From positions 4,059-68,058 of the forward strand of contig JAZSQS010000035.1 in assembly GCA_045538105.1 (NCBI GenBank): a stretch of DNA of 64,000 nt, written 5' to 3'. The position numbers and the translations under genes are program-made. The notes beneath the pieces are model-generated. The model saw only the letters and a program-made list of their open reading frames with translations, ran no database searches and had not been told where the DNA came from. Source of the DNA: Akkermansia sp. Its GTDB lineage: Bacteria; Verrucomicrobiota; Verrucomicrobiia; Verrucomicrobiales; Akkermansiaceae. Position 1 is the first letter of the stretch. Each line of letters begins with the position of its first letter. This document shows, piece by piece, positions 1 through 61,145 of this stretch.

Positions 1-2882
1 CGCAAGAAGGAGGTTTCAACGTTACCCACGACTGAATTAACCAGATGCATAGGCTCGGCAAACCAATCAGTATACTGGCCATCGGGCCCTTTTAATCGCC
101 ACAACTTGCCCCCCTTGCCATCAGAGGTATGCTCAAATTTATAGTCAGTCAAAGCAAGGAAGCGGTGCATGATTGGCATATTGGCATTCAATCGGTAACG
201 ATTATCTCCATCATCCACCTGATTCTTACCCGGCAGTTCCGGTTTCCAAACCTTAGGGTCCAAGTGGTCTCCTAATTCTCGTCTCAGGATTTGCTTGTAA
301 GCCTCTTCTGGCGTCATTCCCTGGGTTAGGAAGGTTTGGAAATCCTTGGTATGGGGCAGAATATCCATGAGCGATTCCCCACATGCCCGAAGGCCCAGCA
401 TGATTCGGTAAGCCTCCAGCAATTCAGGCTGACCATTCCAACGCCCGCGGGATGCCTTCCGGTATGCCTTGCCATATGTATCGCGGAAATCCTCAATCTT
501 CACTTTACGGAACCAGCGGGGAGCATAAGCAGCGGAGCGGCGTCTCTCGCGGTACATTTCCTCAATAGAATTATAAAATGTTTCAAAAGCCACCTCGCGA
601 GGTACTCCGGAGGCAGCCCGGTGAATGGCAGAACATAGCTCACTGCATATTCTCTGACGCCGCGCCTCCGTTTTCTGGCGGGCTGCATCAATATTGAAAT
701 ACGAGCCTTTCAGACTATCCAGGGACTCCAGGTTCAGAAGCGCCTGGTAACTCAGATTAATCATTTCTGAAACGCGGTCTGCCATGAGCATCTGTATGGC
801 CTTCTCGCGGTGAGGATTGTAAATTCCATTCAATTTTACCTGTTTAGGCAAAAGGGAAGCTCCGTCTGAGAGCATTTTATGATACATCCCAAAACGTTCC
901 ACCTGCTGCTTTTTATCCTTGACCACGCTACCATTACCTTTCTGATACCATTCATCCATCAACAGGAGATATGGCAGGCTCTTTTCTGCATTCAAAGGCA
1001 TGGACTTGCGCCCGGTCAAGCGCTCTGCGACCTGGAGCATTTCCTCCTGGTTACCCGTATCCCGCACAACTGTCTCAGGGCGGGACAATCCTTCCACGGA
1101 ACTCTTTTTGTTCAGGAAATCCACGCGGGCCCTAGGGTCTTTGAACCCAGCGTGATATTCCGTATTCAACAGCAGGAGAGAACGCATCAGCTCCTCCACA
1201 GCACCGGCTCCACTCCAGCGGCGGCTACTGCAAAGCGCTTCCCGCAACAGTTGGTTCTGCACATGAATATCCGGCTCTTCTATGATGCGGAGGCGGGTTG
1301 GTTCATCCACCCCCCATTCAGATAAACGACCACCGTTATCCAACAACTTGGAAGGAGAGCGGAAATGATGCAAAGCTGCGCGCCCCGCAGCAATCAGGAC
1401 AAAAGGCAGATTCATCGCAGCTTCGCGCATGTTCGCCTCAATGTCTGTAAAATTATTGCCAAAGGTTTCCCAATCAATATTGGAAGCCACCTTATCCACC
1501 CTGGCGGCCAGCTCCTGGGTTCCCAATTCTGCAGCCTGGGCAGCCTTGCCAGCCAGCAACATCTTAGCATTTTCTGCCGTCAGGATACCCAACCCCTTCA
1601 AAGCTGCAAGTGAATAGCCCTTCCAACCGGCGCTTCCTGCACGCATGAACTCATTAATAGTCCGGTTGAGCATCTGCGCGCCAATGCGACTCATGCCTGC
1701 ATAAATGCCTGCCTGCAACGAGCCGCCGAGAATGCCGGCAGCAGTCTGGAGTTCCTGACGCCCCTTTGGCGAACGCCTGCGGGCTTCTGCCACTGCCGCA
1801 CCAGTGCCGGAAAGGGTCAGCAAGCCAAAGCCAGCTCCACCAGAGAAGGCTGCGATAGCTCCCGGTACAGCTCCAGCTGCATCTACGGCCATTTGTTCTG
1901 CCAGATTACTCTCCTCTCCCAGGTCTATGGGGAACAACTCCCCTTGGGCCACGCGGCGTAATTCATCCAGCACCTGCAGGCGCTTATCTGCTGCACTGCT
2001 CAAGTTCCTGAGTGTATCACTTTCCAGGGTTTCACCAGCAGCCCGTGTAAGCGCTGTGGCAATATGCCCAAGCCCTTGCAGGGATGAATGCCCCAAATCC
2101 GCAGCTCCACGCCGCACACTGTGCAGCATGGCTTCGGCCAGATTATCCGGTTTCTCCTCCAATTGGCGCGTTGAATCCAACGAACGAGCAATGGCGTATA
2201 CCCGGGCGCGTTCATCTGCATCCATATCTGCCAGTTCATCCACAGCCCGAACCAAGCCAGGAACTTTCGCAAAGACGGTCGGAGTATAGACGGGATTGGA
2301 CTCCATGGTTTTGATGGCTGACCATGCCTCTGATATGGACTCTGCCAGTGGCATGTATTGCTCACGCAAGGACTCGGCATGTCCCTGCGCCATGTCACTA
2401 ATCTGGAAATCCGCTTCTTCATCTGGCAAATCGGGCATTTCCCCACGGAGAGCTGAAAGATAATGCTCCTTGTACAGACGGCGGGCCTTTTCTGCCATAG
2501 GAGCATCTGCATTCTTTAGCGAGAGAGCCGAATACAGTTCCTTTTCTGAATTCCCCACACCAAACAAGCGGGTCAAATCCCGGCGCAGTTCCGGCCACGC
2601 GCTGCGAACCTGCTCCCGGCTCATATTCTGGTAATCCACCACCCACGAACGGTTAATATTGGTCATGAGTCGGTAGTCCCGCTCCTCTTGCGGCAGCGAT
2701 TCATCCGCTGCACCCGCTTTCTGGCGAAGCGCATCCGGGACAGAACTCAAATCTCCGGTGAGGAGGGTATTCCAGTATTGACCTTTCTCCCATTCCTTAC
2801 CCTGATTCACCTTAGGCAGAGGCTTGAGAGAGTCCAGAGGGAGCGGTTTATCCTGCTTGATTTCAACGGTTTCCGTGTTCAT
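1..2882 (-). CDS. large hypothetical protein, C-terminal end outside window (>960 aa)
   Basis: By my own translation the minus-strand frame is open from ATG 2882 (MNTETVEIKQDKPLPLDSLKPL...) to position 1, about 960 codons with no stop. It is absent from the ORF track only because its stop lies outside the window. The start overlaps the upstream ORF stop by 20 nt. It has a Gly/Ala-rich hydrophobic block (AGAVPGAIAAFSGGAGFGLLTLSGTGAAVA, AGILGGSLQAGIYAG). No NTPase or catalytic motif recognised. Confidence 0.6.
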   Translation of the reverse strand, partial: MNTETVEIKQDKPLPLDSLKPLPKVNQGKEWEKGQYWNTLLTGDLSSVPDALRQKAGAADESLPQEERDYRLMTNINRSWVVDYQNMSREQVRSAWPELRRDLTRLFGVGNSEKELYSALSLKNADAPMAEKARRLYKEHYLSALRGEMPDLPDEEADFQISDMAQGHAESLREQYMPLAESISEAWSAIKTMESNPVYTPTVFAKVPGLVRAVDELADMDADERARVYAIARSLDSTRQLEEKPDNLAEAMLHSVRRGAADLGHSSLQGLGHIATALTRAAGETLESDTLRNLSSAADKRLQVLDELRRVAQGELFPIDLGEESNLAEQMAVDAAGAVPGAIAAFSGGAGFGLLTLSGTGAAVAEARRRSPKGRQELQTAAGILGGSLQAGIYAGMSRIGAQMLNRTINEFMRAGSAGWKGYSLAALKGLGILTAENAKMLLAGKAAQAAELGTQELAARVDKVASNIDWETFGNNFTDIEANMREAAMNLPFVLIAAGRAALHHFRSPSKLLDNGGRLSEWGVDEPTRLRIIEEPDIHVQNQLLREALCSSRRWSGAGAVEELMRSLLLLNTEYHAGFKDPRARVDFLNKKSSVEGLSRPETVVRDTGNQEEMLQVAERLTGRKSMPLNAEKSLPYLLLMDEWYQKGNGSVVKDKKQQVERFGMYHKMLSDGASLLPKQVKLNGIYNPHREKAIQMLMADRVSEMINLSYQALLNLESLDSLKGSYFNIDAARQKTEARRQRICSELCSAIHRAASGVPREVAFETFYNSIEEMYRERRRSAAYAPRWFRKVKIEDFRDTYGKAYRKASRGRWNGQPELLEAYRIMLGLRACGESLMDILPHTKDFQTFLTQGMTPEEAYKQILRRELGDHLDPKVWKPELPGKNQVDDGDNRYRLNANMPIMHRFLALTDYKFEHTSDGKGGKLWRLKGPDGQYTDWFAEPMHLVNSVVGNVETSFL

Positions 2883-15621: not shown

Positions 15622-15695
15622 TTGCGGGAGCAGGATTTGAACCTGCGGCCTTCAGGTTATGAGCCTGACGAGCTACCTGGCTGCTCCATCCCGCG
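15622..15695 (-). tRNA. initiator tRNA-fMet (anticodon CAT)
   Basis: 74-nt cloverleaf CGCGGGA-TG-GAGC-AGCCAGGTA-GCTC-G-TCAGG-CTCATAA-CCTGA-AGGCC-GCAGG-TTCAAAT-CCTGC-TCCCGCA-A. C1xA72 mismatch typical of bacterial initiators and near-identity to E. coli tRNA-fMet from memory. No encoded CCA. Confidence 0.9.
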
Positions 15696-24737: not shown

Positions 24738-26177
24738 ATGAACCACAATCTCACCACGGCTGCCGGCATTCCGGTACCCGATAACAACCGCTCACTCACC
24801 GCGGGGCCTCGTGGTCCCATGCTCATGCAGGACACATGGCTCTTCGAAAAGCTCAGCCACCTGAACCGCGAAGTCATTCCGGAGCGCCGCATGCACGCCA
24901 AGGGCTTCGGAGCATTCGGCGTATTCCGCGTCACAAATGATATCACGCGCTACACCTGTGCCGATTTGTTCTCCTCCATTGGCAAGGAAACAGAGGTCTT
25001 TGTGCGCTTCTCCACGGTGGCGGGTGAGCGCGGAGCCGCAGATGCAGAGCGCGATATCCGCGGCTTTGCCGTCAAGTTCTACACCCACCAGGGAAACTGG
25101 GACCTGGTAGGCAACAACACGCCCGTCTTCTTCCTGCGGGACCCGCGCAAATTTGCCGACCTGAACCACGCCATCAAGCGCCACCCCGCCAGCGGACTGC
25201 ACAGCCCCTCTGCCAACTGGGATTTCTGGACCTCCCTGCCTGAAGCCTTCCACCAGGTCACCATCGTGATGAGCGACCGCGGCATCCCGGATGGTTTCCG
25301 GCATATGCACGGATTCGGCAGTCACACCTTCTCGCTCATCAACGCCCGGAACGAGCGCATCTGGTGCAAGTTCCACTGGCGCTGCCAACAGGGCATCCGC
25401 AACCTGACCGATGCCCAGGCTGCCGCACTCATTGCCGCAGACCGTGACAGCTCCGGTTCCGACCTCTACCGAGCCATTGAGCAAGGGCGATTCCCGAAAT
25501 GGACGCTCTGCATCCAGGTCATGACCGACGCAGAGGCCGCCGATTTCCCCTTCAACCCCTTTGATTTGACCAAGGTGTGGCCGCATGGGGATTTTCCGCT
25601 CATCGAGGTGGGTGAAATGGTGCTCAACCGCAATCCGCAAAACTATTTTGCAGAAGTGGAGCAAGCCGCCTTCAACCCCGCGCAGGTGGTGCCGGGTATC
25701 AGCTTCTCCCCGGATAAGATGCTGCAAGGCCGCCTCTTTGCCTATGGGGATGCACAGCGTTACCGCCTGGGGGTGAACCACCACCTCATTCCGGTAAACC
25801 GCCCCCGCTGCCCCTTCCACAGCTTCCACCGCGATGGGCAGATGCGTACAGATGGCAACCTGGGTGGCACCCTCAGCTACGAGCCCAATAGTTACCACGA
25901 ATGGCAGGAACAGCCCCAGTTCACCGAACCTCCCCAGCATATCTGCGGAGACTCCGGCCACTGGGACTATGCCAATGATGATGATGACTACTTCGCCCAG
26001 CCCCGTGCCCTGTTCCTGCTCATGAATGCAGCGCAGCGCCAGGCGCTCTTTGAGAACACCGCACGCGCCATGGCCGACGTGCCGGAGTTCATCCGCCAGC
26101 GTCATCTGGAGCACTGCTTCCGCTGCCATAAGGATTATGGCGAGGGTGTGGCAGCGGCTTTCGCCGCAACGTCCTGA
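24738..26177 (+). CDS. katA: monofunctional haem catalase (small-subunit type)
   Basis: [18 protein letters not shown] (distal His region), [14 protein letters not shown] (proximal Tyr region), 479 aa. Confidence 0.95.
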
Positions 26178-26431
26178 CCGCAGGTCAGGATATCGTCTGC
26201 CCCGCCAGGGGCAGATATCGTCCAATCCGCAGGATTGGATATCGTCCAGCCCCAACGGGGCTGGATTTCGTTTCCGATTTGCAAGGGAGTATTATTTCCC
26301 AAGGATTGGGAGAATATTTGCTATTGATTCACAGGAAACGATATCCAGCCTCCTGCGGAGGCTGGACGATATCCGGCTTGCGCCGGACGATATCTTGCCT
26401 GCGGCAAGACGATATCCTCGCTTCGCTCGGA
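26173..26431. repeat. hairpin-array inverted-repeat element, gene-less copy
   Basis: Left arm has four GC-rich hairpins each followed by ATATCGT (26190, 26215, 26239; ATTTCGT at 26265). A 62-nt core follows. Right arm has ACGATAT (26338, 26366, 26387, 26409) each followed by a hairpin. It fills the whole katA-ispG intergenic space. Confidence 0.85.
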
Positions 26432-26432
26432 C

Positions 26433-28175
26433 TTAAGGCTCAACCCAACGGCCGTGGTCCTTGATAAGCTGCACGAGGTGCTGCACAGCTTCCTCCTGCG
26501 GAATGTTCATGACCACGGGGGTGTGCCCCACATAGAGGTTAATCTTGTTCGGAGCGCCACCTACATAGCCGAAATCGGCATCGCTCATTTCGCCGGGACC
26601 GTTCACGATGCAGCCCATGATGGCAATCTTCACGCCTTTGAGGTGTCCGGTGGCCTCGCGGATGCGGGCAGCAGCTTCCTGGATATTGTAGTGCGTGCGG
26701 CCACAGGACGGGCAGGAAACATACTCAGTCTTGCTCAGGCGCACGCCAGCAGCCTGCAGGATATTGAAGCCCAGGCGGGCAGCCTTGTCGGGGGCGGTCT
26801 CGCGGCGCACAAGCACAGCGTTGCCAATGCCGTCGCAGAGCAGCGAACCGGCATTCACACCGCCGGCCATGGGGGCAGAAAGGGAATCCAGCCCGTTGCA
26901 GAGCGTATCCTTGAGCAGAATGCTGTGGCGGGTCGGAATGACGGCAGCCAGCAGACGGAAGGCCTGCACCACCGGCATGTCGATACCATCCTTCACCGTG
27001 ACCAGCGTTGCGGGAGCCTCGGCCAGGGCAGCAGTGGCGGCGGCATCGCGCGGGTCAAGCTCCACCGGAGCGCAATCCTCATACGAGATTTCCGGCATGA
27101 AATCCTTCATAACCGCAGGGTCAAGCGCCTTGCAGGCAGCTTCCGGCAGCACCACGCGCACCGGCTCATTCCAGCCCAGGCTCACACCGCCGCGGGTGAC
27201 AACCTCGGCCTTGCGCTTGTTGAATTCAAAGGGATTAAAGGCATCCGGCACCTCCACGGCCAGCGGAGCAGCGGGCAGCACCGCACCGGGCTGGTAGGGA
27301 GCAGCCAGTTCAAAACCGGGGGCTATCTCAAACACCGGGTCCTCGGTCAGGGAGACGCGCAGGGTATCGCCAATACCATCGGCCAGCAGGGAGCCCACGC
27401 CGGTGGCGCTCTTGATGCGGGCATCCTCGCCCTCGCCGGCCTCGGTCACACCCAGGTGGATGGGGTAGTTCCAGTCGAGCCCCTCCTCGGCCAGGCGCTT
27501 CACCAGCAGGCGGTAGGCCTGAATCATCACCTTCACATTGGAAGACTTCATGGAGAACACCAGCTGGTGGTAATCCAGCTCGCGGGCAATGCGGGCAAAC
27601 TCAAGCGCACTTTCCACCATGCCATCAGGCGTATCGCCATAGCGGTTCAGAATGCGGTCGGAAAGCGAGCCATGATTAGCTCCCAGGCGCATGGCGCGAC
27701 CATGTTCCTTGCAGAACAGCACCAGCGGCGTAAAGGCCTTACGGATTTTCTCAATTTCCTCTTCGTACTCATAGTCTGTGTAGTCTCGCTCCACAAACTT
27801 CTTCTTATCCACAAAGTTACCGGGATTCACGCGGATTTTCTCCACCCACTTGGCAGCCTCCATGGCAGCATCCGGCTTGAAATGAATATCTGCCACCAAC
27901 GGCACATTGCACCCGGCAGCGTGCAGCTCGCGGGCTATATTTTCCAGGTTAGCGGCATACACCTTGGTCTGCGCGGTCAGGCGGATGATTTCACAACCAG
28001 CCTCGGCCAGCGCCAGCGATTCGCGCACACACCCGGCTGTATCCAGCGTATCGCTGGTCAGCATGGACTGAATACGGATGGGATTGTTACCACCAATCCC
28101 CACGTTTCCCACCATCACCTCGCGGGTGAGGCGGCGCGTATACTGGTACAGACTCGGGCAATGAAGCGTGCTCAT
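26433..28175 (-). CDS. ispG: 4-hydroxy-3-methylbut-2-enyl diphosphate synthase, long form with insert domain
   Basis: N-terminal TIM-barrel segment (VGNVGIGGNNPIRIQSM), C-terminal 4Fe-4S segment (CPSCGRT, GCIVNGPGE), and 580 aa with a central insertion. Confidence 0.92.
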   Translation of the reverse strand: MSTLHCPSLYQYTRRLTREVMVGNVGIGGNNPIRIQSMLTSDTLDTAGCVRESLALAEAGCEIIRLTAQTKVYAANLENIARELHAAGCNVPLVADIHFKPDAAMEAAKWVEKIRVNPGNFVDKKKFVERDYTDYEYEEEIEKIRKAFTPLVLFCKEHGRAMRLGANHGSLSDRILNRYGDTPDGMVESALEFARIARELDYHQLVFSMKSSNVKVMIQAYRLLVKRLAEEGLDWNYPIHLGVTEAGEGEDARIKSATGVGSLLADGIGDTLRVSLTEDPVFEIAPGFELAAPYQPGAVLPAAPLAVEVPDAFNPFEFNKRKAEVVTRGGVSLGWNEPVRVVLPEAACKALDPAVMKDFMPEISYEDCAPVELDPRDAAATAALAEAPATLVTVKDGIDMPVVQAFRLLAAVIPTRHSILLKDTLCNGLDSLSAPMAGGVNAGSLLCDGIGNAVLVRRETAPDKAARLGFNILQAAGVRLSKTEYVSCPSCGRTHYNIQEAAARIREATGHLKGVKIAIMGCIVNGPGEMSDADFGYVGGAPNKINLYVGHTPVVMNIPQEEAVQHLVQLIKDHGRWVEP

Positions 28176-38312: not shown

Positions 38313-38804
38313 ATGATAACACTCGTAGGTTTAGGATACGATATTCACCGCTTCTCTGAGACGGAACGCCCGCTGTGGCTTGGCGGTGTACAGGTGCACC
38401 CGACTAAGGGACTTGCCGGGCATAGCGATGCAGATGTACTCTGCCATGCACTGGCAGATGCCATTCTGGGCGCTATTGGCGAGCCGGATATCGGCTACTG
38501 GTTCCCTCCAGGAGATGCGGGGTGCAAGGATATCTGCTCGCTCCGCATTGTGGAAAAGGCGGTCGAGTTGCTGCAAGCCCAGGGAGGCCGAGTGGTTAAT
38601 GCGGACTGCGCCCTCATTGCCGAGGCTCCAAAGATTATGCCTTTTGTGCAGCAGATGAAGGAGACACTGGCCCCGATTTTAGGCGTAGCGCCTCGCCGCG
38701 TAGGAATCAAGGCCACCACGAATGAGAAACTGGGAGCCCTGGGACGACGCGAAGGCATGGCCGCCTTTGCCACAGTAGCCATATTGGTTCCCGAAGAAGC
38801 CTAA
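38313..38804 (+). CDS. ispF: 2-C-methyl-D-erythritol 2,4-cyclodiphosphate synthase
   Basis: GLGYDIHRF and GHSDADVLCHALADAILGA, 163 aa. Confidence 0.93.
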   Translation: MITLVGLGYDIHRFSETERPLWLGGVQVHPTKGLAGHSDADVLCHALADAILGAIGEPDIGYWFPPGDAGCKDICSLRIVEKAVELLQAQGGRVVNADCALIAEAPKIMPFVQQMKETLAPILGVAPRRVGIKATTNEKLGALGRREGMAAFATVAILVPEEA

Positions 38805-56702: not shown

Positions 56703-56775
56703 TACCCCCGCGCGGACTCGAACCGCGGACAAATTGATTAAGAGTCAACTGCTCTACCAACTGAGCTACGGAGGC
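56703..56775 (-). tRNA. tRNA-Lys (anticodon CTT), copy 1
   Basis: 73-nt cloverleaf GCCTCCG-TA-GCTC-AGTTGGTA-GAGC-A-GTTGA-CTCTTAA-TCAAT-TTGTC-CGCGG-TTCGAGT-CCGCG-CGGGGGT-A. The acceptor stem has G1-U72 and U4-G69 wobbles. Confidence 0.85.
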
Positions 56776-56804
56776 ATTTGCTCACCCGGCTGCTCACAGA
56801 CTGG

Positions 56805-56877
56805 TACCCCCGCGCGGACTCGAACCGCGGACAAATTGATTAAGAGTCAACTGCTCTACCAACTGAGCTACGGAGGC
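56805..56877 (-). tRNA. tRNA-Lys (anticodon CTT), copy 2
   Basis: Identical 73-nt sequence, 29 nt from copy 1. Confidence 0.85.
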
Positions 56878-56923
56878 ACTTTGTCTGTGAGCACCCTGCA
56901 CCCTGTGTTTCTCTTAGGGGAGA

Positions 56924-56995
56924 AGCCGCTGGTCAGATTTGAACTGACGACCCACGCATTACGAATGCGTTGCTCTACCCCTGAGCTACAGCGGC
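56924..56995 (-). tRNA. tRNA-Thr (anticodon CGT)
   Basis: 72-nt cloverleaf GCCGCTG-TA-GCTC-AGGGGTA-GAGC-A-ACGCA-TTCGTAA-TGCGT-GGGTC-GTCAG-TTCAAAT-CTGAC-CAGCGGC-T. Confidence 0.9.
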
Positions 56996-59354: not shown

Positions 59355-60443
59355 ATGCACCTCTACATCCACGTTCCCTTCTGCCACCGCATCTGCCCCT
59401 ACTGTGCCTTTTTCAAGCACACACCGGGCAGCAGTGACATTCGCGGCTACGTGCAAGGCGTTATTAAGGAAGCCCGGCTCCGGCTGCCTGAAGGAAGCAG
59501 CCCGAACACCATTTATTTTGGCGGCGGAACCCCCAGCATGCTCTCCCCCACCCACCTGGAACTCCTTATCACCGGCCTGGGGCAGTGGCTCGACCTCAGC
59601 CATGTGCAGGAATGGAGTTTCGAGAGCAACCCCGCCACCTTTACCGCTGCAAAAGTCCGGCAGTGGCAGCAACTGGGTATCAACCGTGTATCACTCGGCG
59701 TTCAAAGTTTTGATGCAGGCTTGCTGCATCTGCTGGGGCGCGAACACAGCCCGGAAGACGTGGCAGGAAGCATGCAACTCCTGCGGGACGCGGGCATCCC
59801 GCAAATCAACATCGACCTCATGTTCTCCCTGCCCGGGCAAAGTCTGGCACAGTGGGAACACAGCCTCCAGGCTGCCCTGGCGCTGCAACCAGACCATATC
59901 TCCACATACAACCTGACCTACGAGGAAGACACGGCTTTCTTCCAACGCTACGGTGCTACCGCCGGCGATGAAGAAACAGACGTTGCCATGTTCAACCTGG
60001 CAGATGACCTCCTCACTGCTGCTGGCTACCGGCACTATGAAATCTCCAACTACGCCCGCCACGGCTGCGAATCGCTCCACAATCTTGCCTGCTGGCATGG
60101 CGAAGACTACTGCGGACTAGGCCCCGGCGCTGTGGGAACCATGAGCGGCGTCCGCTACTGCAACGCCGGCGATACTGCCGCCTACACGGCCGCCCTGAAA
60201 GCAGGTACCCTGCCACCCGGCACCTCTGAGGAGCTCGACCCTGCCACCCGCCGCACCGAGCTGCTGGGCCTCCTGCTCCGAACCGATGAGGGACTGCCAC
60301 CCGCCATGCTCCGCCCGCAGGATAGTACCTTCATTACCATGCTCCAGCGCGAGCAGCTCGCCACCATTTCCCCCACCGGCCGCCTCATTCTCACCCGCTC
60401 CGGCCGCCTCGTGGCCGATGAAATCGCCGTCGGCCTCATCTGA
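59355..60443 (+). CDS. hemW: radical SAM haem chaperone HemW (HemN-like, oxygen-independent coproporphyrinogen oxidase family)
   Basis: LYIHVPFCHRICPYCAF (CxxxCxxC). 362 aa, without the extra HemN N-terminal elements. Confidence 0.85.
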   Translation: MHLYIHVPFCHRICPYCAFFKHTPGSSDIRGYVQGVIKEARLRLPEGSSPNTIYFGGGTPSMLSPTHLELLITGLGQWLDLSHVQEWSFESNPATFTAAKVRQWQQLGINRVSLGVQSFDAGLLHLLGREHSPEDVAGSMQLLRDAGIPQINIDLMFSLPGQSLAQWEHSLQAALALQPDHISTYNLTYEEDTAFFQRYGATAGDEETDVAMFNLADDLLTAAGYRHYEISNYARHGCESLHNLACWHGEDYCGLGPGAVGTMSGVRYCNAGDTAAYTAALKAGTLPPGTSEELDPATRRTELLGLLLRTDEGLPPAMLRPQDSTFITMLQREQLATISPTGRLILTRSGRLVADEIAVGLI

Positions 60444-60554
60444 CGTCCGCGAGCCCCTGCTCGCGGATATCGTTACTCCCCCGCCTGCGGGGGAGTAATA
60501 TCGTTTTTGTCGACAGGCAAAAATATCGTTCCGGCCGCAGGCCGGAATATCGTT
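60444..60554 (+). repeat. left hairpin-array arm (4 hairpins, each followed by ATATCGT)
   Basis: Hairpins at 60447-60466, 60475-60496, 60506-60521 and 60531-60545. Linkers at 60467, 60498, 60523 and 60547. Confidence 0.9.
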
Positions 60555-60600
60555 TCCTATCAAGTCTTTCAGAAACGAAAACATATCATTGGGAAATCAT

Positions 60601-60629
60601 TTGCCCTCACATGCGAAAACTGATAGAAT
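60601..60629 (+). promoter_or_regulatory. sigma70-like extended -10 promoter TTGCCC-17-(TGa)TAGAAT (leaderless configuration)
   Basis: -35 at 60601-60606 and -10 at 60624-60629 with TG at 60621-60622, 8 nt to ATG 60638. Confidence 0.45.
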
Positions 60630-60637
60630 GCCCAATC

Positions 60638-60979
60638 ATGAAACCGCATCCTTTAGCTGAGCAAAGTCTGGATTTTTCCGTTAATATAGTTCACTTTTGC
60701 GATGGTATTGAACGTTACGCTGTCCTGAAAAATCAATTACTCCGCTCTGCCACCAGCATTGGAGCCAACATTCACGAAGGCATTTATGCAAGCAGCGGTG
60801 GAGATTTTGTAGCGAGATACCAGATTTCGCTAAAGGAATGCCATGAGACTGAATATTGGCTCAAAATCATGGAACGAGCCGGACTTGCACAGCCTGAACA
60901 AATCAGGCAGCTCCTTCAACAATGTGGAAAAATTCGCCGCATGCTGATTGCGTCCATCACCACGGTTAAAGCAGGCTGA
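60638..60979 (+). CDS. four-helix-bundle protein (23S rRNA intervening-sequence protein / Avd family)
   Basis: LLRSATSIGANIHEGIYASSGGDFVARYQISLKECHETEYWLKIM matches the family pattern as I remember it (RSxxSIxxNIxEG ... DFxxxLxIAxGSxxE). ~113 aa. AT-richer than the flanks. Start could instead be 60611. Confidence 0.75.
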   Translation: MKPHPLAEQSLDFSVNIVHFCDGIERYAVLKNQLLRSATSIGANIHEGIYASSGGDFVARYQISLKECHETEYWLKIMERAGLAQPEQIRQLLQQCGKIRRMLIASITTVKAG

Positions 60980-61023
60980 TTTCGTTTCCCAATGCACACT
61001 GATACATATCTGTAAAACAATAT

Positions 61024-61135
61024 AGGAAACGATATTCCGGCCTGTGGCCGGAACGATATTTTTGTCTGTCGCCAAAAACGATATTACTCCCCCGCAGGCG
61101 GGGGAGTAACGATATTCTCGCTCGCGGCGAGAACG
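61024..61135 (-). repeat. right hairpin-array arm (reverse complement of left arm)
   Basis: Linkers ACGATAT at 61029, 61053, 61078 and 61109. Hairpins at 61037-61051, 61061-61076, 61086-61107 (exact reverse complement of 60475-60496) and 61116-61132. Confidence 0.9.
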
Positions 61136-61145
61136 TAAAACGCGC

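Follow-up and report, generated by a model that had tools for sequence, protein, structure and literature searches.

A gene-less array of hairpins and heptamers between the convergent katA and ispG genes of Akkermansia and its PF05635-associated relatives

Introduction

The catalase gene katA and the ispG (GcpE) gene of an Akkermansia sp. (NCBI GenBank assembly GCA_045538105.1, contig JAZSQS010000035.1, positions 4,059 to 68,058 of the forward strand) converge on an interval that holds no gene and is filled by short hairpins alternating with the heptamer ATATCGT or its complement. We call this whole stretch of 64,000 nucleotides (nt) the window. What kind of element is this, how did it come to lie there, and what might it do at the 3' ends of two ordinary genes? 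An initial annotation, made from the sequence of the window alone, had taken it for a gene-less relative, like a miniature inverted-repeat transposable element (MITE), of a gene-bearing element at 60.4 kb (hereafter element B). The results of our analysis showed that the katA-ispG element is real and is of a Gut-1-like, repetitive extragenic palindromic (REP)-like or intervening sequence (IVS)-like kind. In our judgement the interval is probably a copy, non-autonomous and composed of two units, of a repeat family of Akkermansia that is associated with PF05635 proteins, and probably the shared 3' end of both genes.

Gut-1 has been in Rfam since 2010 and, to our knowledge, has been given neither a host organism nor a function. 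PF05635, named the '23S rRNA intervening sequence protein', is a very large family related to Avd for which pentameric structures have been solved, and we know of no role for it outside diversity-generating retroelements (DGRs).

Results

The interval between katA and ispG

The two genes are convergent, and the 255 nt from stop to stop are made up of two hairpin arms (Table 1). We rechecked all coordinates and sequence strings of the initial annotation against the sequence: the four plus four hairpins with ATATCGT or ACGATAT within 26173-26431 are where it had placed them, and the element does fill the whole spacer. The katA stop codon TGA (26175-26177) lies within hairpin 1, and the ispG stop codon TAA (TTA on the + strand, 26433-26435) lies within the element terminus GGACTTAA (26429-26436). 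The two units stand head to head with an overlap of ~18 nt in the palindrome TTTCCCAAGGATTGGGAGA. This central palindrome (26295-26313) takes in the GGGAA box of each unit, and the T-rich ATATTTGCTA comes next. The hairpin sets of the left and right arms differ, the arms being 71% identical.

The heptamer ATATCGT/ACGATAT is present in 22 copies in the 64 kb, where 2.7 +/- 1.4 were expected, and 0 of 100 shuffles reached 22. Fifteen of the 22 copies fall in the katA-ispG element and element B; lone ATATCGT matches elsewhere in the window (for example at 38338), which lie in coding sequence and lack hairpins, were rejected as chance. Comparison of the folding of the katA-ispG interval with that of shuffled sequences gave z = -12.1 and -10.6 on the two strands. 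Could the interval be low-complexity sequence, or GC-rich palindromes brought together by chance? The GC-rich background and nothing beyond it speaks for this reading, which is refuted by these counts and folding scores and by the hidden Markov model E-values down to 1e-32 given below, and we hold it to be next to impossible.

Table 1. Features of the katA-ispG element, of element B and of two Gut-1 loci. Positions are those of the window unless a locus is named.
Feature	Position	Strand	Details
katA (catalase)	24738-26177	+	Open reading frame (ORF) list; Pfam Catalase E 3e-185
ispG (GcpE)	26433-28175	-	ORF list; Pfam GcpE E 8e-121
Outer left terminus ACGTCC	26169-26174	+	The family terminus is (TAA)GTCC, of which this is a variant (comparison of 40+ arm termini)
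Left unit, katA-ispG element	26172-26313	+	Hairpins H1-H4, four linkers, fifth stem TTCCG...GGGAG
Left-unit hairpins H1-H4	26173-26189, 26197-26214, 26222-26238, 26246-26264	+	Perfect stems
Left-unit linkers	ATATCGT at 26190, 26215, 26239; ATTTCGT at 26265-26271	+	Each 3' of a hairpin
Central palindrome TTTCCCAA-GGA-TTGGGAGA (= TTTCCCAAGGATTGGGAGA)	26295-26313		The two units overlap here
Right unit, katA-ispG element	26294-26438	-	Four linkers, four hairpins, terminus GGACTTAA
Right-unit linkers ACGATAT	26338, 26366, 26387, 26409		Each followed by a hairpin
Right-unit hairpins	26345-26365, 26373-26386, 26394-26408, 26416-26430		
Profile match, katA-ispG left unit	26174-26311	+	E 1e-18 (range 1e-18 to 3e-23)
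Profile match, katA-ispG right unit	26294-26437	-	E 1e-32 (range 1e-32 to 8e-35)
Element B (gene-bearing relative)	60443-61138	+	695 nt; left unit, promoter-like site, PF05635 gene, right unit
Profile match, element B left unit	60444-60597	+	E 5e-17
Promoter-like TTGCCC-17-(TG)TAGAAT	60601-60629	+	Promoter scan; 8 nt before the PF05635 ATG
PF05635 gene of element B	60638-60979		113 codons; Pfam 23S_rRNA_IVP E 3e-22; PDB 2RLD E 1e-18
Profile match, element B right unit	60984-61138	-	E 4e-16
Gut-1 arrays, two inverted arms	L256:1057-1471, L257:1307-1475		PF05635 genes at 1501-1839 and 1501-1833

A family of repeat units

Relatives were sampled by a genome scan with ATATCGT x3, in which about 16 of 119 loci were useful among the matches listed and the rest were mostly unrelated, and by a metagenome scan with GATATCGTC x3, in which 4 of 120 loci were in the family and the others were mostly ordinary tandem repeats. 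Among the matches listed, these scans gave about 20 loci of the same design in Akkermansia, Akkermansiaceae and Verrucomicrobiales metagenome-assembled genomes (MAGs), and similar arrays with AT-richer hairpins were found in Clostridia MAGs. Sampled loci are numbered with the prefix L.

Comparison of 39 distinct units from 20 loci showed that unit length is constant (141-159 nt, about 145 nt) and that the linkers are invariant. Each unit starts with the terminus (TAA)GTCC or ACGTCC, continues with four hairpins that are each followed by ATATCGT, and ends with a fifth stem, TTYCC...GGGRA, the two boxes of which are 34-38 nt apart (GGGRA at +34..38) in all units. Of the 59 unique inter-linker spacers, 56 form a perfect stem of 4 bp or more, versus 8.5% of shuffles, and the aligned stems showed many double compensatory changes, one pair being AU 11 times, GC 8 times, CG 6 times and UA once. 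The stem sequence itself is hypervariable, as the 59 unique spacers show, and the hairpins are of free, GC-rich sequence. On the ATATCGT strand, most loops are GCA, ACA, AAA, GGA, GAA, GCAA, GGAA or GAAA, and this bias is strand-specific; such purine-rich loops of the GNA/GNRA type are stable in single-stranded RNA or DNA.

A leave-one-out nhmmer profile was built from units of other loci only, the window and the orthologous katA-ispG copies being left out, and it matched exactly four units in the 64-kb window, two in each element (Table 1). Because both arms were matched by a profile built without window or orthologous sequence, the katA-ispG element is, by sequence, a member of the Akkermansia hairpin-ATATCGT unit family. 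Its description as the gene-less relative of a gene-bearing element is thus backed by this profile, and also by the comparison of arms given below.

Arms of the GTCC type follow a position rule: in nearly every case there is an inward-reading ORF, 169-610 codons long, whose end precedes GTCC by 0-6 nt, so that the elements directly follow stop codons and are mostly located between two convergent genes. Gene-bearing copies obey the same rule. The evidence shows that arrays without a gene lie at the 3' ends of ordinary genes of a gut bacterium. In a second subfamily, in which the outer flank is CCCTCCC-GTYC beside G-rich tracts, the units are single-armed, often in tandem, and lie away from ORF ends (L077, L104, L117, L244).

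The G-rich runs that border single-arm units of this second subfamily (L244, L117, L077, L090, L044) resemble GGGGAGGGAGGGAGG (CCCTCCC on the unit strand) and could form G-quadruplexes. Its tandem rows reach three units, and at least seven copies are present in 13 kb of L244.

Gene-bearing relatives

A gene-bearing copy reads unit -> promoter + PF05635 gene <- unit; the katA-ispG copy has facing units and no gene. Such copies were found in the window (60443-61138), in L110 and at a locus common to L023, L057, L177 and L271, and PF05635 is the only gene that they carry. The PF05635 homologues located between the same units in L023, L057, L110 and L271 are 74-79% identical. The PF05635 protein of the window matched PDB 2RLD, an entry with five chains, and since the promoter-like site is only 8 nt before the ATG, the PF05635 mRNA would be leaderless or nearly so. 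Terminator-like hairpin and T-run sites in the arms of element B, at 60472-60499 (+), 61083-61110 (-), 61035-61053 (+) and 60529-60547 (-), point both inward and outward.

Element B had been presented as the gene-bearing relative of the katA-ispG element. Comparison of the right arm of the latter with gene-bearing arms showed only 60% identity to element B versus 94% (98/104) to an arm of L057, located at the TM2/DJ-1 locus in other genomes, and the closest relative is therefore at that locus. The two window elements do have in common the strings and the spacing that had been pointed out, namely ACGTCC at 26169-26174 and 60443-60448, 'TCCTRT + 28 nt + TTGGGAAAT', and the 12-mer GATTTCGTTTCC at 26264-26275 and 60978-60989; this 12-mer is a variant linker plus the TTCC box and not a specific deletion border. 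The core-to-core match of the two elements was only marginal (shuffle p about 0.004-0.02) and was limited to the ATNNTTGGGAAAT box, which has the same offset in both. Their relatedness rests on the family profile (E 1e-18 and 1e-32) and not on the pairwise comparison of cores.

The hemW gene lies upstream of element B, and the HemW C-terminus is identical in all orthologues. L273 (GCA_052836945.1) is an empty site: 64 nt that hold no element separate hemW from the same Sel1-like gene. As PF05635 is Avd-like, a DGR was considered and rejected: no reverse transcriptase and no template repeat/variable repeat pair was found beside either element, the search being confined to those surroundings.

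Arrays beside other PF05635 genes

A protein-led sample was obtained by searching IMG/VR with a PF05635 protein alignment, not with DNA, and gave 15 loci, 12 of them non-redundant. Inverted arrays of a lineage-specific 6-8-nt repeat were found flanking the PF05635 gene or just upstream of it at 9 of the 12 loci (shuffle p<=0.04). Closer PF05635 proteins have linkers that are alike (ATATCGT, ATTTCAC, CTTCAC, ATATCAT), while those of distant proteins are unlike; across the loci compared, the evidence shows that linker sequence tracks PF05635 protein lineage.

The distant PF05635 genes (L262-L267, L270, L086, L025 and L013:600-1500) are flanked by inverted tandem 7-8-nt repeats (TAACCTA, CAATTGAC, AGTTAGG, GATTTTTGA, TTGCGGA, TAATGAA, ATTACGA). 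These arrays begin flush with the upstream stop codon and many of the repeats hold a stop triplet; with a 7-nt period, three stop-bearing repeats put a stop in all three frames.

Could such arrays be decoys or operators? The heptamers of the katA-ispG element would then titrate or position the pentameric PF05635 protein and so regulate either that protein or katA and ispG, mobility being irrelevant; CsrB, which titrates CsrA, and the trp leader, which positions TRAP, are models for this. The covariation of the linker with protein lineage fits a decoy array, and so do the sites of each arm, four full and one degenerate linker-like, when set beside the pentameric state of the family (PMC4990558), a homopentameric toroid having been reported for a Xanthomonas PF05635 homologue (PMC4990558). 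Loci of the Firmicute type also have the array between a terminator and the PF05635 ribosome-binding site, as a leader would be. In the gene-bearing Akkermansia copies, however, the predicted promoter is downstream of the sense array, so that the array is not in the PF05635 gene's own leader. We judge a decoy array improbable as the whole account, and it overlaps the explanation by a PF05635-associated repeat copy rather than excluding it.

An array of clustered regularly interspaced short palindromic repeats (CRISPR), integron attC sites and type III toxin-antitoxin repeats were rejected as identities of the katA-ispG element: its repeat measures 7 nt, its 'spacers' are palindromic, and it has no cas, intI or toxN gene next to it. 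One large screen for associations with CRISPR lists '23S rRNA IVP' among the new partners of adaptation modules or arrays (PMC10910872). Repeat arrays beside PF05635 genes could account for such a signal, should array-finding programs score them as CRISPRs.

Relation to Gut-1, rRNA intervening sequences and REP elements

The Rfam model RF01706 (Gut-1), run in E-value mode, matched both arms of the katA-ispG element over its full length, the right arm at 26336-26420 (+) with 27.2 bits (E 0.0025) and the left arm at 26185-26273 (-) with 21.2 bits. Both scores are below the Gut-1 gathering threshold of 50 bits, which places the arms outside the family proper, and a search of the window at gathering thresholds returned four tRNAs only, with no rRNA and no Gut-1. 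The arms of L023, L057 and L100 likewise matched Gut-1 over its full length below 50 bits. Matches above the threshold (72.9, 69.4 and 62.6 bits) were obtained in two PF05635 loci of the IMG/VR sample, L256 and L257, in which the Gut-1 arrays are directly upstream of the PF05635 genes and downstream of tRNA genes. At the level of sequence, the evidence shows that Gut-1 and PF05635 go together.

Gut-1 was described from human-gut metagenome reads only, as three hairpins with GUGAAAU or GUGAUAU linkers and with no function (PMC2864571). Like the arms studied here, it has short free-sequence hairpins split by an invariant 7-nt linker, some of its seed members have two inverted arms between convergent genes, and true Gut-1 arrays adjoin PF05635 genes. 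Unlike it, the katA-ispG element has the linker ACGAUAU on the matched strand (..GA.AU being common to both), four hairpins and a conserved fifth stem rather than three hairpins, and the arrangement unit-> <-unit, whereas Gut-1 loci have <-unit unit-> and then the gene. Its host belongs to the Verrucomicrobiota, and Gut-1 was described without a gene association.

The full-length sub-threshold matches of both arms would also be expected if the element were a structured small RNA of the Gut-1 class, transcribed on its own and with a function that does not concern the flanking genes. Functional RNAs typically show strong covariation and conserved single-stranded linkers, and Weinberg et al. in 2010 graded Gut-1 as certainly an RNA (PMC2864571). 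A scan for promoter-like sites in or beside the element found 0, however, and the Gut-1 scores are sub-threshold. The two inverted symmetric units favour no single transcript orientation, and an element that abuts two stop codons would be transcribed as 3' untranslated region anyway. We therefore regard a separate small RNA as unlikely.

IVSs of 23S rRNA provide the second comparison. That of Coxiella has GACAGAT heptamers, three to four in number, before its S23p ORF (PMC4990558), and IVSs with an S23p/PF05635 ORF (Leptospira, Coxiella; PMC4990558) resemble our family in that the same protein family is enclosed by inverted repeats, with heptamer repeats by the ORF, a sporadic spread, a long-suspected mobility and an undamaged host gene product. 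The katA-ispG element differs from them in that it lies between protein genes and not in helix 25 or 45 of 23S rRNA, there being no rRNA in the window, in that it has no ORF, and in having local hairpin arrays instead of one long RNase III stem.

The third comparison is with REP sequences, arranged as bacterial interspersed mosaic elements (BIMEs) or as REP doublets (REPINs), and their REP-associated tyrosine transposases (RAYTs). Both systems have extragenic palindromic units that are single, tandem or in inverted doublets, often at gene 3' ends, and both have a single-copy gene that is flanked by inverted units and locus-stable within species. In our family the conserved part is the single-stranded linker and not the stem, there is no conserved stem with a 5' GTAG and, within the window, no RAYT gene, and the flanked gene encodes a four-helix-bundle PF05635 protein rather than a Y1 HUH transposase.

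History of the katA-ispG junction

Catalase homologues assign the window to an Akkermansia species, and orthologous katA-ispG spacers were taken for nine catalase alleles. The element is present in L255, the closest relative (catalase 96% identical), in which two hairpins make up the left arm and one of these is fused from hairpins 2 and 4, and in L001, where positions 3 and 4 are occupied by other hairpins and there is a partial triplication. It is also present in L133 and L134, in which the katA ORF runs through hairpin 1 and 8-11 codons into the element. L128 has a 32-nt remnant composed of hairpin 1, one CTATCGT and the right terminus. Relatives lacking the element, which the initial annotation had proposed to look for, were found in L003-5, where the spacer is 4 nt, and in L129 and L130, where a canonical A-tract/hairpin/T-tract bidirectional terminator is in the same place.

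As read from these spacers and from the hemW locus, the comparison showed that the element is absent from the katA-ispG junction and from the 60.4-kb locus in some related genomes, and that at katA-ispG whole hairpin modules are lost, fused or replaced in the course of its evolution while its linkers and its hairpin 1 persist. Its presence in several lineages implies that it predates their split. It is an old copy, though not a universal one, and not a recent insertion. The suggestion that the element, which contains the katA stop codon, may have reshaped the end of the catalase found support: the catalase C-termini differ in step with the element among the orthologues (AATS, ATQP, AALS, SAP and others). 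The C-terminus of ispG (...WVEP) is unchanged, also where orthologues lack the element; of ispG, the element terminus takes in no more than the stop codon.

Two of these spacers stand out. In L001 (4431-5160) three left arms are interleaved with short katA 3'-end and ispG coding fragments, an arrangement that is either a repeat-promoted rearrangement or a metagenome assembly artefact. In L003 (4437-4600; GCA_017517805.1) only ~150 nt of the ispG 3' end lie beside katA, followed by unrelated sequence and a Chlam_PMP-like gene, so that the breakpoint of this rearrangement falls within ispG; units are also present elsewhere in this MAG (L104).

Transcript ends

Scanning of the katA-ispG element for terminator-like hairpin and T-run sites gave two on the + strand, at H4 and at the central palindrome, and none on the - strand, versus 0.4 expected. 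With the terminator that L129 has at the same site, these lend indirect support to the terminator or 3'-end role proposed for the element, which is plausible.

Units at gene 3' ends that stabilise mRNA are known from REP/BIME arrays, and the katA-ispG array could likewise have evolved in the host as a non-mobile bidirectional terminator or mRNA stabiliser, its copies arising by gene conversion and selection at 3' ends, with PF05635 as a passenger. Elements flush between convergent stop codons at many loci, the canonical terminator of L129, the terminator-like sites in the arms of both window elements and the stability of copies at their loci within species all agree with a host-evolved array. 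Termination, however, needs no invariant 7-nt single-stranded linker, and a passenger gene leaves unexplained why the association of array and gene recurs across phyla with lineage-specific linkers. The single-arm tandem units away from ORF ends (L077, L104, L117, L244) and the clean presence or absence of a 695-nt gene-bearing copy at the hemW locus are further points against it. We give a host-evolved array a small but not negligible chance of being right.

Discussion

How would a two-unit copy of a PF05635-associated family work as the shared end of katA and ispG? Both convergent mRNAs would read into the arms in the sense direction, giving hairpin-AUAUCGU repeats, and it is on this ground that we propose the array as a shared 3' end. 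It would stop read-through and block 3' exonucleases, replacing the canonical bidirectional terminator seen in a relative. The heptamers are putative recognition sites of the pentameric PF05635 protein supplied by gene-bearing copies, for example the one 34 kb away, and recombination or template switching at the linkers, which are invariant, may swap hairpin modules among paralogous copies.

The comparison with MITEs bears on the mobility of such copies. Like a MITE, the katA-ispG element is small and gene-less with inverted termini, the linkers, the GTCC/GGAC termini and the TTCC/GGAA boxes all being inverted; longer relatives carry a gene; and presence/absence polymorphism was observed at the katA-ispG junction and at the hemW locus. 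Unlike a MITE, the copy is ancient at its site, and its gene-bearing relatives encode only PF05635, which is not a known transposase.

Several results weigh against our explanation. No direct repeat that could be a target-site duplication was found at the junctions of the katA-ispG element or of element B, nor in the empty sites, the target site being unreadable because the empty-site genomes (L003, L129, L273) are too diverged from the filled ones; the term MITE-like is not supported in its strict sense. We know of no transposase or nuclease activity of PF05635, and arms that are 71% identical are unlike classical terminal inverted repeats. One PF05635 allele, looked for in differing contexts as a sign of recent transposition, was always in the TM2/DJ-1 context on 23 contigs, and the gene-bearing copies are therefore locus-stable within species. 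No terminator-like site was found on the - strand of the katA-ispG element, leaving the katA direction only, and the count of G.U versus A.C mismatches for the transcribed strand (3 versus 1) comes from too few informative sites. Finally, all relatives are MAG or metagenome contigs, in which repeats can be mis-assembled, as in the L001 triplication.

A wider reading can be offered tentatively, as a possibility to which we would not yet give even chances. Hairpin/heptamer arrays, including Gut-1 and the IVS repeats of the S23p type, may be the cognate nucleic-acid sites of pentameric PF05635 (Avd-like) proteins, the two together forming a widespread and so far undescribed two-component cassette that colonises the space after stop codons and the tips of rRNA hairpins, its gene-less arrays being acted on in trans.

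Through their association, Gut-1 and PF05635 gain a shared context that can be tested, as regards both the binding of heptamers by the pentamer and the moving, processing or regulation of arrays. For annotation, hairpin/heptamer arrays matter in that they reshape protein C-termini and break assemblies; more speculatively, they could be mistaken for CRISPR arrays or small RNA genes.

Other observations

A Clostridiales MAG has a raiA RNA motif (192 bits) at L100:4527-4734; a two-armed ATATCG/ACGATAT array lies ~700 nt away, and the two are probably unrelated. The four tRNAs of the window, three in a row on the - strand at 56703-56995 and one at 15622-15695, are unrelated to the katA-ispG element.

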